Shown: one piece after another, positions 18,973 to 52,740 of the stretch
Layout of the letters: each line of letters opens with the position of its first letter
Numbering within the stretch: position 1 is the first letter of the stretch
Source of the DNA: Spirochaetia bacterium
GTDB lineage: Bacteria > Spirochaetota > Spirochaetia > CADAEX01
Assembly: GCA_963662265.2 (NCBI GenBank)
Contig: CAXXHA010000032.1
Coordinates: 96,001-160,000, forward strand
Length of the DNA stretch: 64,000 bases
Direction of reading: 5' to 3'
Position numbers and translations under genes: made by a program
The notes under the pieces: model-generated
The model's input: only the letters and a program-made list of their open reading frames with translations
Database searches by the model: none
What the model was told of the DNA's origin: nothing

Positions 18973-19698
18973 ATGAGATCAGTACCAGAAAAACTAAAAG
19001 AACGTTATACGTGGTTCAAGAAGCATTCAGCCCTTGAAAAAACACCGGGATTCGCGCTTGAGATTATTTCAGATGACAAGCCGGGGCTGATATCAGACAT
19101 GTCGGCAGTAATTTATGAAAACGGCGGCAACCTGGCATTTTTCCAGTCATGGAATGAATATGACGGAAAACCGCATACACTGCTGCAGATCGACAATGAC
19201 TGCTGTGAAAAGACAATAATCGAAAAACTTTCAAAAATCAGAGAGATAAATTCAATAAAACATATCCCTACAAATATTAACACCTGGGGAAAAAGAATAA
19301 TCATAATCGGCGGAGGTGCACAGGTTGCAAGTGTTGCCTCTGGTGCTATAGCAGAAGCTGACAGGCACAATATACGGGGAGAAACCATATCTGTTGATAC
19401 AACAGCGATTGTCGGTGAAAAAGAGATTGCAAACACAATTCTTGCAGTTGGGAAACTTCACCGTGCGGGAATGCTTGTTCTCGCAGGGGCCCTGATGGGC
19501 GGCAAAATCACCGAAGCTGTAAAAACACTGAGGGAAGAATACGGTATTCCGGTTCTTGCGCTGAGCATGGCAGGCTCTGTTACAGAAGAGGCCGACCTTG
19601 TAGTTACAGACCCTATTGAAGCAGGTGTAATGTCAGTAATGCTGATAAGCAATGTCGGGAAATTCAACCTTCTTAAAGTCGAGGGTAACCGGTATTAG
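18973..19698 (+). CDS. ACT-domain protein of the archaeal COG1707/DUF5612 type
   Basis: N-terminal ACT domain (DKPGLISD), then GKRIIIIGGGAQVA...GAIAEADRHNIRGETISVDT...LVLAGALMGGKI...VTDPIEAG. Confidence 0.8.
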   Translation: MRSVPEKLKERYTWFKKHSALEKTPGFALEIISDDKPGLISDMSAVIYENGGNLAFFQSWNEYDGKPHTLLQIDNDCCEKTIIEKLSKIREINSIKHIPTNINTWGKRIIIIGGGAQVASVASGAIAEADRHNIRGETISVDTTAIVGEKEIANTILAVGKLHRAGMLVLAGALMGGKITEAVKTLREEYGIPVLALSMAGSVTEEADLVVTDPIEAGVMSVMLISNVGKFNLLKVEGNRY

Positions 19699-19707
19699 AA
19701 AGCGGGA

Positions 19708-20008
19708 GCCTTGAAAACCTTCTCAGGTTTTCTCCTTCCGGCATCTGCATTCGGAAATTGCTCTTTGGGAATTTCCTAACAGATGCCTTGAAAACCTTCT
19801 CAGGTTTTCTCCTTCCGGCATCTGCATTCGGAAATTGCTCTTTGGGAATTTCCTAACAGATGCCTTGAAAACCTTCTCAGGTTTTCTCCTTCCGGCATCT
19901 GCATTCGGAAATTGCTCTTTGGGAATTTCCTAACAGATACCTTGAAAACCTTCTCAGGTTTTCTCCTTCCGGCATCTGCATTCGGAAATTGCTCTTTGGG
20001 AATTTCCT
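19708..20008. repeat. Tandem array of about 3.9 near-identical 77-bp palindromic units
   Basis: Units start at 19708, 19785, 19862 and 19939. Unit sequence: GCCTTGAAAACCTTCTCAGGTTTTCTCCTTCCGGCATCTGCATTCGGAAATTGCTCTTTGGGAATTTCCTAACAGAT. Confidence 0.97.
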
Positions 20009-20262
20009 CGTTATTTATTGAAATTTTAGTTAGATGCTCTATACTTATATATATGACATATTGTTATTTAAAAAATACAAAAAGCTTCATGTCATCAATC
20101 AGCAAAATTTTACACATCTTGAGTCTCTGCTGGATACATCTGCAAAAAAAATCTGGAAAACATCACAATTTTCTCAGTTTTACCGGATGTATGAATTTCA
20201 AGAGGAATTTTCCAATCTTTATTCCGGAGATTGAAAGATACCATGTTGAAAAGGAGCTGTAA

Positions 20263-35127: not shown

Positions 35128-35166
35128 CAAGGGAATCTCTAAAACAATATTTCACGAGGTTCCCAT
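35128..35166. repeat. Short palindromic element related to the AAGGGAATCT...AGATTCCCTT family
   Basis: AAGGGAATCTCTAAAA...GAGGTTCCC; similar ends occur near 45015, near 50860 and at 52698-52740. Confidence 0.45.
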
Positions 35167-35169
35167 AAC

Positions 35170-35206
35170 AAAATGCAAAATCCGCTTATGCGGGTTTTTG
35201 CATTTT
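35170..35206 (+). terminator. Terminator of putP
   Basis: AAAATGCAAAATCCGC-TTAT-GCGGGTTTTTGCATTTT. Confidence 0.75.
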
Positions 35207-35494
35207 ATTTCTGACAGCAAGCGTTATCCCCGGATAGGGAACAATGCAGAAAAAAATGTTTTTTTTACTTTTCCCATATTTCTGCCTGAAACAGATGCGT
35301 TACAGCAGTCAGTGAAACCTGACCCTGGAAAAATTATTTCAGACAGGAATATTTTCAACGAAGAATAAATCTTTTTCAGCGGCAGCTTAAGCATTATTTT
35401 TCATATATCATGAGCAGGTAAAACACAAAAATATTTTATCAGCTCATAACGAAGTCTTTACATAAATTATCACTTTCATTACTATGGTTTTAAT

Positions 35495-38471: not shown

Positions 38472-38967
38472 TCTTTGGATGAGTGATCATCTTTGGATAA
38501 ATAATCTTTGGATGAGTAATCATATAAGGGCGAAAATCTTCTGAATGAAAAATCATCCCCGGCTAACAGTCCATGATTGAATAATTACCCCGGCAAGCAA
38601 TTGTCTAAGCTGCAATTAAGCCGGGGATTTTTTATACAATTCAGCATCAGGGTGTTCAGATCTGGCATGAAGTTGAAAACCTGAAATAAACAACCACTTT
38701 GTCACCAGTTCCGGTGGGTACTGATTTGTTGCAAGCTGCGGGTTATTACCCCGCTTATAAGCAGGGGTATTGTCAAATGGGAGTGAGGAGTGGCCGCGTT
38801 GTACAAAAATATTCCCAGGAGAGTAAAGACAAGAAGGCTTAGACCTGAACTGCGAATAAAAAACGCTGGTACAATTATTACAAACAGTTACCCTTTATAC
38901 CATGTCAATTACATTCAGTATTGATTGACGCCGGTTTTAGCTGTATATTATTTTCAGAACAGCATTT

Positions 38968-39087
38968 CAACTGTGAATATCCAAAGAGATATTTCCGAAT
39001 GCATGTTGCCGATAAAAAAACTGATATTTATCAGTTTACAGGCAACTGCGAGGAAGTCTCCAAAAGTAATTTCCGGATGCATATGCT
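38968..39087 (+). repeat. Diverged, inverted copy (about 1.5 units, 78-bp period) of the 77-bp repeat
   Basis: CCAAAGAG..ATTTCCGAATGCA.GTTGCCG...hairpin...AGGCAACTGCGAGGAAG..CCAAA.AG.AATTTCCGGATGCA aligns to the reverse complement of the 19708-20008 unit. Confidence 0.8.
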
Positions 39088-39119
39088 AAAAAAAAACAAT
39101 AATAAGGATTTTTTCAATT

Positions 39120-39815
39120 ATGGACAATATTCAGGATTTATTCAAAGCAGCTGAAACCGGCGACCTCGACACAATAGAAAGAATCTTAACAGAAGATATT
39201 AAACTGCTGGAATCAGTGAACAGCGACAACCTGACCCCGCTTGCAGCAGCACTTTACAGCGGACAGCCTGATGCCCTGCAGTTTCTGATAAACAACGGCG
39301 CCAGGCTGAATGTTCCGGGCAGAGACGGGAAGACAACACTCCAGTGGGCAAGAGAACAGGATGAGAACTGTGAAACTGCCGCAGTTATTCTTCTTACCGA
39401 TTACATGGACAGAATATATAATACAGCTGTCTGGTGGAATAAAAGAGAGGAAAGAGTAGCTGAAGGCAAGGAAAAAGTGGGAAACATTGATCTTGATGCA
39501 AACTGCGATTCCTGCGGCTGTATCCTGGATTATTCAGGCAGCACATTGCTGACGCTCGATGAAGCGCTTTCCACGGATAAATACACTGAAAGAATTACAG
39601 ATCAGGCCCTTAAAATGCTGCCCCCCGAGAAAAAAATAGGGACAAGGGAAGAAATTACAGAAATGATAACAAAGCAGATCAGGGAAAAAAACATGTCTTC
39701 GACATACATGGTATGCGATTCATGCCGTGATAATTTATTTTCTGAAACAATTTTCGGGAAAAACAGAAAATTTATTCTCGAATCTATTGATAAACTGTTC
39801 AAAGACCAGCTATAG
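39120..39815 (+). CDS. Ankyrin-repeat protein with C-terminal CxxC...CxxC
   Basis: Ankyrin motifs LFKAAETGD, TPLAAALYSG and GKTTLQWA; two CDSC motifs. Confidence 0.75.
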   Translation: MDNIQDLFKAAETGDLDTIERILTEDIKLLESVNSDNLTPLAAALYSGQPDALQFLINNGARLNVPGRDGKTTLQWAREQDENCETAAVILLTDYMDRIYNTAVWWNKREERVAEGKEKVGNIDLDANCDSCGCILDYSGSTLLTLDEALSTDKYTERITDQALKMLPPEKKIGTREEITEMITKQIREKNMSSTYMVCDSCRDNLFSETIFGKNRKFILESIDKLFKDQL

Positions 39816-52413: not shown

Positions 52414-52575
52414 AATATTGTAGAAATACAATATCCCTGACAATTTCAATAGCTGATTCAATATTTACGGGAACTTTTAAAAATCCGCAGTAGTGAGTTT
52501 TTTCTCTTTCAAGCAGGAAAAACACCTGAAATATCTGCAACAGCCAGAAAGACTCCCCGAAGAGGGAATTCTGAT

Positions 52576-52617
52576 AAAAAAAGGTTCACCCGGCAATTAC
52601 CAGGTGAACCTTTTTTA
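52576..52617. terminator. Bidirectional terminator between convergent genes
   Basis: AAAAAAAGGTTCACC-loop-GGTGAACCTTTTTT. Confidence 0.75.
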
Positions 52618-52621
52618 TTTT

Positions 52622-52740
52622 ATGAGCTCCTCTAAAACTCGCTTTTTAGAGTTTTTTACCCGGCAAGCCGGGTAAAGTGCCTCAGATTTTCGCCCACAAG
52701 GGAATCTAGACGAAAAAACTATGTTTTTTGAGATTCCCTT
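52622..52740 (+). mobile_element. Dispersed MITE/IS-end-like repeat, copy B, ending in an AAGGGAATCT...AGATTCCCTT palindrome
   Basis: Homologous to 45147-45230; internal hairpins CTCTAAAA/TTTTAGAG and TTTACCCGGC/GCCGGGTAAA. Confidence 0.6.

Follow-up and report, generated by a model that had tools for sequence, protein, structure and literature searches.

A low-copy, two-hairpin repeat dispersed among leaders and intergenic spacers of a spirochaete genome

Several families of small structured repeats populate the intergenic regions of bacteria. The BOX elements of Streptococcus pneumoniae are composites of the form boxA-boxB(n)-boxC with terminal inverted repeats. They are described as small intergenic repeats of a narrow clade whose transcripts are predicted to adopt stem-loops, and as presumed parasites that can affect co-transcribed genes (Croucher et al. 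2011, PMC3049150). MIRU sequences, as summarized in a later article, insert at start codons and bring an ORF that is coupled to the gene with a spacing of -4 (Supply et al. 1997, via PMC12548453). REP, BIME and REPIN sequences are single palindromes of 20-40 bp that are present in high copy and are tied to a RAYT gene (PMC3733652, PMC3116915).

The repeat considered here was encountered in a 64,000-nucleotide stretch of a spirochaete genome of 3.77 Mb and 41 contigs (G000). This stretch, termed the window, covers positions 96001-160000 of contig C32, and two other genomes of the same genus (G001 and G002) serve for comparison. The flagged copy consists of one full and one partial unit of a module of about 77 nucleotides, which it has in common with an array on the opposite strand of the window (Table 1). 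The first-pass annotation placed the two 19 kb apart in inverted orientation, and this is correct: the distance is 18,960 nucleotides, and the flagged copy matches the minus strand of the array. The best explanation, with a probability of roughly 0.65, is that the flagged sequence represents 1.5 units of a non-coding dispersed repeat of the BOX or MIRU kind, which is restricted to one lineage and co-transcribed in leaders. That the repeat represents a dispersed structured family is very probable, and it probably, if less surely, has no dedicated regulatory role.

Two comparisons support the kinship of the flagged copy and the array. BLAST aligns C32:115708-116008 (minus strand) with C32:134981-135086 (plus strand) at 72% identity, with an E value of 1.9e-6 in the 3.77-Mb genome. 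A covariance model (R2) made from 10 units of other loci, and thus from no window sequence, finds positions 38971-39051 (plus strand) at 59.3 bits with an E value of 1.8e-10 in the window, and it scores two units of the sister array at 73.9-77.9 bits. A second covariance model of the repeat (R1) identifies six loci in G000 at E values below 1e-9, in the form of one to four tandem units. Partial unit 2 of the flagged copy is not significant on its own (R1, E 0.48), which is what would be expected if the likeness were due to chance or to slippage debris without any family. However, this explanation is refuted by the R2 and BLAST values and by the existence of six loci in G000 and more in G001, and it has practically no chance of being correct. 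The proposal that the copy is something other than slippage noise is therefore sound, with the dispersed family comprising six loci in G000 and three in G001, of which one is orthologous.

Table 1. Repeat loci in the genome and features of the flagged copy. Positions given without a contig are those of the window.
Feature	Position	Strand	Description	Basis
nadC-leader locus	C1:288667-288820	-	2 units, upstream of nadC
Lipoprotein-leader locus	C39:67903-68132	-	3 units, upstream of lipoprotein-like gene
Receiver-leader locus	C35:5348-5424	+	1 unit, upstream of double-receiver gene
yajC-spacer locus	C32:172009-172217	+	2 full units plus one H1 (2.5), in geneX-yajC spacer
Sister array	19700-20009	-	4 units, last cut in H2 3' arm, 99% alike
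Flagged copy	38971-39082	+	1.5 units, upstream of ankyrin gene
Promoter-like site	38921-38949	+	TTGATT-17 nt-TATATT, predicted transcript start near 38956	Consensus scan
Unit 1, hairpin H1	38973-38996	+	Arms GTGAATAT / ATATTTCC, conserved loop CCAAAGAG	Leave-out model alignment, folds
Unit 1, linker	38997-39000	+	GAAT; next GCA pairs as H2 base
Unit 1, nested hairpin H2	39001-39049	+	Base GCA/TGC, outer stem GTTGCC/GGCAAC, A-rich internal loop, inner hairpin
Partial unit 2	39052-39082	+	H1 GGAAGT / ATTTCC with one G-U, then linker GGATGCAT
Shine-Dalgarno-like site	39104-39108	+	AAGGA, 11 nt before start codon
Downstream gene	39120-39815	+	231-aa ankyrin-repeat protein	Pfam Ank_2 4e-09, Ank_4 5.5e-09

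Each unit consists of a hairpin (H1), a linker and a nested hairpin (H2), and the periods range from 74 to 79 nucleotides. H1 has a 7-bp stem whose 5' arm resembles a Shine-Dalgarno sequence (AAGGAAT) and a near-invariant loop of 10 nucleotides, CCCAAAGAGC, in which seven of the ten columns are invariant or nearly so. In H2, an A-rich internal loop separates the outer stem from an inner AAAACC/GGTTTT hairpin. In the units of the sister array, read on the minus strand, H1 is formed by GGAAATT, the loop and AATTTCC, and is followed by the linker GAAT. The H2 of these units comprises a GCA/TGT base, a GATGCC/GGCATC outer stem, the internal loop GGAAGGAG and the inner hairpin AAAACC-TGAGAA-GGTTTT. 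Tandem Repeats Finder reports this array at 19708-20008 with a period of 77, 3.9 copies and 99% matches. Because of the periods of 74-79 nucleotides and the 1-nt indels between strains, the repeat is judged to be non-coding.

The flagged copy departs from the array as had been described, and all of the listed details were confirmed. The change of the outer stem from GATGCC/GGCATC to GTTGCC/GGCAAC (39005-39010 and 39041-39046) replaces an A-U pair by U-A on both sides, and the linker ATTTCCGAATGCA of the array indeed recurs unchanged in unit 1. The H1 of unit 2 (arms at 39052-39057 and 39069-39074) does have a single G-U, which would be C-A on the opposite strand. An extent of about 1.5 units is also accurate, with unit 2 having H1 and linker only; the distance between the two H1 starts gives a period of 79 nucleotides (78 in the first-pass annotation). 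The inner hairpin AAACTGATA-TT-TATCAGTTT is present at 39018-39037, next to an A-rich internal loop with a run of A residues at 39014-39020, and is longer than that of the array, but its description as a replacement applies only to the top: its base, AAAC.../...GTTT, is homologous to AAAACC/GGTTTT of the array. The end point first given for the element, 39087, lies 33 nucleotides before the ATG at 39120, close to the distance first stated. For the 145-nt stretch 38956-39100, the predicted fold has an energy of -36.0 kcal/mol and a z score of -4.13, and none of 200 shuffled sequences folds as well.

The stems covary, as the first-pass annotation anticipated. The check was run on an alignment of 19 units from nine loci in two genomes. 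Changes on both sides are found for 11 of the 22 modelled pairs, compared with 5.2 in shuffles, and pairing is retained in 94.7% of 396 cells, compared with 86.2% in shuffles and at most 52.2% with slid partners; for neither measure do any of 500 shuffles score as high. However, these counts overstate the independent support because the units are few and in many cases share descent, and because the alignment had been made to fit the model. In addition, the register of the inner stem is wrong in the alignment's three rows from C39. Individual examples can be given. Position 3 of H1 is G-C in the nadC units of G000 and A-U in the orthologous units of G001, and the outer stem of H2 occurs as GATGCC, GAAGCC, GTTGCC, AACAC or AAGAC, in every case with a matching partner. 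Single-unit folds follow the same plan, with z scores of -2.9 to -4.7. Inverted-repeat stems can also be compensated at the DNA level without selection, by template-switch correction of quasi-palindromes. The two strands also fold about equally well, and the selection that had been suggested may not act on an RNA.

A similar division applies to the defined polarity that had been proposed. Within the helices of the model there are 21 G-U cells and 8 A-C cells, six of the latter being accounted for by the mis-registered C39 rows (three) and by truncated units (three). A symmetric count in free minimum-energy folds of both strands gives 21 G-U pairs in the sense strand versus 16 in the antisense strand, which is not decisive, and unit 1 of the flagged copy folds slightly better in antisense (-24.7) than in sense (-23.4); the two strands of an array unit give -28.5 and -28.8. 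The 145-nt flagged leader favours the sense strand (z score of -4.13 versus -2.69 for antisense), and among leader units the sense fold is the better one in six of nine. For antisense units outside leaders, the strand of the flanking genes folds at least as well in five of six, in a comparison made post hoc. These results suggest that the strand found in mRNA is the better folder, and overall the strand polarity of the repeat is weakly supported.

Three other kinds of element were considered by reading and set aside. The conserved R'/R'' core of integron attC sites is not present. Palindromic operator sites were rejected on the basis that copies of the same genome have unlike stem sequences, a variation that one DNA-binding protein would not accept, and coding repeats on the basis that the periods are not multiples of three.

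The family is a previously undescribed, low-copy dispersed repeat with a conserved two-hairpin structure, and its known distribution is very narrow. Among 151 genomes searched (own, genus, family and class), R1 matches G000 and G001 only, which represent two species of one uncultured spirochaete genus. The three loci of G001 are 2.6 units before nadC, one unit beside groEL and a decayed unit directly after a stop codon, and the nadC leader is the one locus that is orthologous between the two genomes. There are no model matches at E values up to 1 in G002, which is 97% complete, and none in the 148 relatives other than these three genomes. A wider scan used the motif CAAAGARNNATTYCNGNRTGC-N(24-42)-TTNNAGG, which catches near-consensus units only, and more diverged relatives may exist. 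It yielded 11 loci in public genome contigs, of which one was confirmed by the model and corresponds to G001, and 27 loci in metagenome contigs and three in viral contigs, of which none was confirmed. All motif loci other than that of G001 had R1 E values of 0.05 or worse, or no score. The prediction that the motif is undescribed also agrees with the search for known families: there are no Rfam matches in the whole window at the gathering score, and the 12 sub-threshold matches obtained for five loci at E values up to 10 include none that falls on a unit. The best of these near the copy, CRISPR-DR50 (E 0.53), lies just upstream of it and was taken as chance.

Some weak candidates were also inspected. 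A match at C16:80831-80910 (E 0.075) was dropped as it is inside the reading frame of an ABC ATPase, and one at G001:1330318 (E 0.21) was dropped as no unit is visible there on reading. R2 gives weak matches (E 0.03-0.7) at window positions 35129-35209, 52547-52617 and 52690-52740. These are hairpins with H1-like arms (AAGGGAATC.../...GATTCCC), two of the three adjoin terminator-like hairpins, and kinship with the family is only a possibility. In place of 35145-35259, the sister strain has 32 other letters.

The first-pass annotation offered mobility as one of two alternatives, and this one is backed by empty orthologous sites: comparison with G001 and G002 marks copies of the repeat as insertions. 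The flagged copy is missing in both congeners. The ankyrin orthologue of G001 retains promoter hexamers (TTTATT-17 nt-TATATT, where G000 has TTGATT-17 nt-TATATT); the consensus scan itself returned five sites versus 2.6 expected and is weak on its own. Downstream of its promoter-like site, G001 reads ...TTTTTTAG|ATGCAT..., and G000 carries the element between ...TTTTCAG and ATGCAT. The flagged array stops after the linker of unit 2 at this same ATGCAT, and the sequence just ahead of its H1 (AGCATTT...) looks similar to the 3' arm of an earlier H2. Thus, GCAT is common to both junctions.

Boundaries can also be read in the other leaders. In G002, the region before nadC reads TAAAGT-N13-AAGGAG-N8-ATG and is empty as ...GGCTGT|AAGGAG, whereas the two units of G000 and the 2.6 units of G001 lie exactly before the same AAGGAG. 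The lipoprotein-like and receiver genes of G001 and G002 are without units and have their own ribosome-binding sites (GAGGTG, AAGAGG, AAGGAG) in the same place. In all three leaders (nadC, lipoprotein and receiver), the array starts with AAGGA or AGGGA, which forms the 5' arm of H1, and is followed by AAGGAG located 7 nucleotides before the ATG. A 5-nt direct repeat, which doubles as the ribosome-binding site, thus flanks the insert.

Comparable observations were made outside leaders. The sister array occupies the space between a stop codon (19696-19698) and a promoter-like site (20018-20045). In G001 and G002, the stop codon of the DUF5612/ACT gene runs directly into the T-rich promoter region of the glyoxalase gene; because the same stop codon and promoter region adjoin there without an array, the array is extra in G000. 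Contigs of the sister strain have one additional base per array unit (window positions 19745 and 19822), restoring the bulged T (GCATGATGCC) of the other subfamilies; the sister strain thus has the array too, but with units of another length. In the flagged copy, its sole difference within H2 is the loss of one nucleotide from the A run, at 39014. Near groEL, the units of G000 lie between gene X and the yajC promoter, the one unit of G001 lies between the groEL terminator and gene X, and G002 has a unit at neither place. To judge from these positions, the groEL-region copies of the two genomes are separate events. The groEL gene of G000 itself, located outside the window, seems to be split between two minus-strand frames that overlap (172810-174258 and 172605-172994, within C32:172605-174258), which suggests a frameshift or an assembly error.

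Collectively, the arrays have no constant ends: three of the leader arrays end behind H2, whereas the flagged one ends behind the linker that follows H1. Since the ends vary and the junctions have microhomology, we infer a copy-and-insert process, such as template switching or illegitimate recombination, in preference to a transposase that recognizes fixed ends. Unit number varies across species and strains. The 99% likeness of the array units and the small differences of the sister strain are consistent with recent turnover. Perhaps new copies arise at the DNA level by copying and insertion where a short homology is available, either GCAT or the AAGGA of a ribosome-binding site, and the arrays might then lengthen or shorten through slippage or through unequal recombination. 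Neither a mobilising enzyme nor fixed ends could be identified, and this route of spread is conjectural.

A purely DNA-level element could also be envisioned, whose single-stranded hairpins would be substrates of, for example, a Y1 HUH transposase, in the manner of REP/RAYT or of IS200/IS605 ends, or whose stems would be kept by template-switch correction, without any role for RNA. The near-equal folding of the two strands and the occurrence of copies in both orientations would be accommodated by this explanation, and G000 has three Y1_Tnp matches above the Pfam cut-off (C39:58668, C35:213443 and C29:88580). However, there is no Y1 gene beside a copy, with the nearest pair being 8.9 kb apart on C39 (copy C39:67903), and end points that vary within the unit are unlike fixed recognised ends. 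The excess of G-U over A-C cells in the model helices and the uniform sense orientation of the leader copies likewise count against an element without an RNA role, which we regard as rather unlikely.

The region upstream of the flagged copy has further repeats. A second and different interspersed repeat of about 180 nucleotides is located at window positions 38685-38862, just upstream of the flagged element. BLAST reveals about 20 full or partial copies of it, 52-189 nucleotides long and 68-88% identical, which are spread over 12 further contigs and also present at C32:175789, and there is no Rfam match for it. Directly after the stop codon of an acyl-CoA synthetase-like gene is an 18-bp tandem repeat of 3.1 copies (38472-38523), and the whole stretch 38472-38920 is missing from the orthologous spacers of G001 and G002. 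Present three times in the 18-bp repeat is TCTTTGGAT, the exact reverse complement of ATCCAAAGA, which is found in the flagged H1 loop 450 nucleotides downstream. This complementarity could be due to chance, or the sequence could be a fragment of an inverted unit.

All four independent leader loci (ankyrin, nadC, receiver and lipoprotein) have the repeat in the sense orientation, and three of the four loci outside leaders are antisense to the flanking genes and downstream of a stop codon. By reading, the leader copies begin about 5-20 nucleotides after predicted transcript starts. The downstream genes encode quinolinate phosphoribosyltransferase (QRPTase, nadC), a double-receiver response regulator, an ankyrin protein and a protein without a Pfam family. 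To judge by promoter-like sites common to the empty orthologues, units situated in sense between the transcript start and the ribosome-binding site would be co-transcribed with the gene. In the mechanism favoured here, the compact local hairpins would keep the true ribosome-binding site single-stranded, and insertion would for this reason be tolerated; perhaps the hairpins of the unit also protect the 5' end of the mRNA. The repeat would then be a tolerated or mildly useful passenger of the BOX or MIRU kind and not a gene-specific switch.

The second alternative in the first-pass annotation was a cis-regulatory RNA, and some features of the leaders could be read in this way. A dedicated leader RNA might bind a protein or another RNA, or it might serve as a switch in which H1 pairs a Shine-Dalgarno mimic (AAGGAAU) with an anti-Shine-Dalgarno arm (AUUCCU) until a factor frees this arm and the real ribosome-binding site, just downstream of H2, is sequestered. 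The orientation of the leader copies, their proximity to predicted transcript starts and the better sense folds of leader units would suit such a function. The H1 loop is near-invariant while the stems covary; a passive passenger would not need this, and it hints at a bound partner. Furthermore, in minimum-energy folds of both whole leaders of subfamily A that were tried (receiver and nadC), the 3' arm of H1 pairs with AGGAG of the true ribosome-binding site plus the spacer, and not with the 5' arm of H1. This predicted pairing is not explained by a passive passenger and would fit a switch.

However, the centroid fold agrees with the alternative pairing only for the nadC leader, as that of the receiver-gene leader retains H1. 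By reading, the alternative pairing is impossible in the lipoprotein leader, which has an all-A spacer, and in the flagged copy. The number of units is 1, 1.5, 2, 2.6 or 3 depending on the gene and differs between orthologues, there is no function common to the genes served, and the orthologous leaders of the congeners work without the element. Moreover, three loci are antisense and outside leaders, and there is no Rfam match. A riboswitch or other gene-specific switch is thus unlikely because copy number varies, the genes are unrelated and orthologous leaders are empty, and we similarly consider any dedicated cis-regulatory role for the leader RNA to be unlikely. Searches for a partner of the loop were also negative: outside the elements, complements of 9-10 nucleotides show no enrichment (2 to 23 matches versus about 7 to 29 expected), and on reading there is no match between the loop and the 3' end of 16S rRNA. 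The complement search revealed an identical 40-nt stretch at five loci of G000 (C5:40466, C8:26045, C8:57212, C10:175561 and C29:74135), which is probably part of an insertion sequence or of another repeat.

In its fullest form, the regulatory reading would make the repeat a portable translational control module. H1 would be a pair of Shine-Dalgarno mimic and anti-Shine-Dalgarno arm, and the conserved loop would be a landing pad for a protein or an RNA. Perhaps, when a factor occupies the loop or the 5' arm, the freed anti-Shine-Dalgarno arm reaches across H2 and covers the real ribosome-binding site, and it is noted that the element of subfamily A always abuts that site. If this were true, insertion at AAGGA would wire unrelated genes (nadC, response regulator, lipoprotein) into one post-transcriptional regulon. 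The full proposal is distinctly unlikely.

It is also conceivable that the sister array is an independent small RNA, for example a sponge of the CsrA type, and that the flagged copy is its relative. The array runs antisense to its two plus-strand neighbours, each of its units contains about three GGA motifs, in AGGAAAU plus GGAAGGAG, and there is one csrA gene in G000 (92 bits). However, there are no terminator-like sites on the minus strand of the array, and the only promoter-like site on this strand (20263-20235) is about 225 nucleotides upstream. Most GGA motifs reside in the stem of H1, and the nadC, receiver and flagged copies lack the one in the internal loop of H2. Moreover, the array was inserted recently and is absent in the congeners. 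An independent small RNA is therefore very unlikely.

As a passenger of this kind, the family would be a further case, from spirochaetes, of small structured repeats that have settled in the gap between transcript start and ribosome-binding site. The availability of filled and empty orthologous sites fixes the insertion point to the base, 5' of AAGGAG and with AAGGA flanks. If such elements are common, they would be a source of leader diversity and could provide copy-number markers between strains. They would also be a trap for motif hunters, since covarying hairpins in leaders look like riboswitches, and they would offer a natural test of how much structure is tolerated in a leader beside the ribosome-binding site.

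Among the known systems, riboswitches and other leader motifs represented in Rfam, which sometimes occur in tandem, resemble the repeat in being structured, covarying modules of 5' leaders. They differ in that no model matches the repeat, whose copy number is not fixed, whose genes are unrelated and whose orthologous leaders are empty: it is absent from nadC of G002 and from the G001 and G002 orthologues of the three other genes, so that the coherent genes and fixed architecture of a riboswitch are not seen. Sponges such as CsrB and RsmZ are a poor parallel too, with neither a terminator-like nor an adjacent promoter-like site on the array strand and no conservation of the loop GGA. REP and BIME sequences are similar as palindromic intergenic repeats that are sometimes clustered and fold as hairpins; the spirochaete unit, however, is 74-79 nucleotides long, has two hairpins, is of low copy and has no Y1 transposase gene beside a copy.

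The likeness to MIRU lies in tandem units of tens of bases that are located at the 5' edge of genes in the orientation of the gene and leave translation intact. As to orientation with the adjacent genes, the picture is mixed, with sense at four of four leader loci and antisense at three of the four others. However, the spirochaete units lie 5' of the Shine-Dalgarno sequence and conserved hairpins are their main feature. A search for a coupling ORF found an ATGA overlap in none of five leaders and TAATG in one of five, a 15-codon ORF before nadC of G001; the frames borne by units in the other leaders stop 30-129 nucleotides upstream or run on. In the G001 case, the third nadC unit (L012 1648-1726) has lost the inner hairpin of H2, and the ORF extends from the linker ATG to TAATG, overlapping the nadC start. 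This is the only MIRU-like arrangement seen.

BOX elements have over a hundred copies. The spirochaete family, with six loci, is far smaller. The likeness includes small intergenic repeats of a narrow clade, variable tandem internal modules, predicted RNA stem-loops, length variation between strains and a presumed parasitic nature with possible effects on co-transcribed genes. Variation in tandem number is evident from the two nadC units of G000 versus 2.6 in G001, from arrays of one to four units and from the different unit length in the sister strain. The composite architecture of BOX is where the two diverge, since the spirochaete repeat has a single type of unit (H1-linker-H2) and no distinct terminal modules in units or flanks. 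In this comparison by published description, it further differs from BOX in abutting the ribosome-binding site in three leaders.
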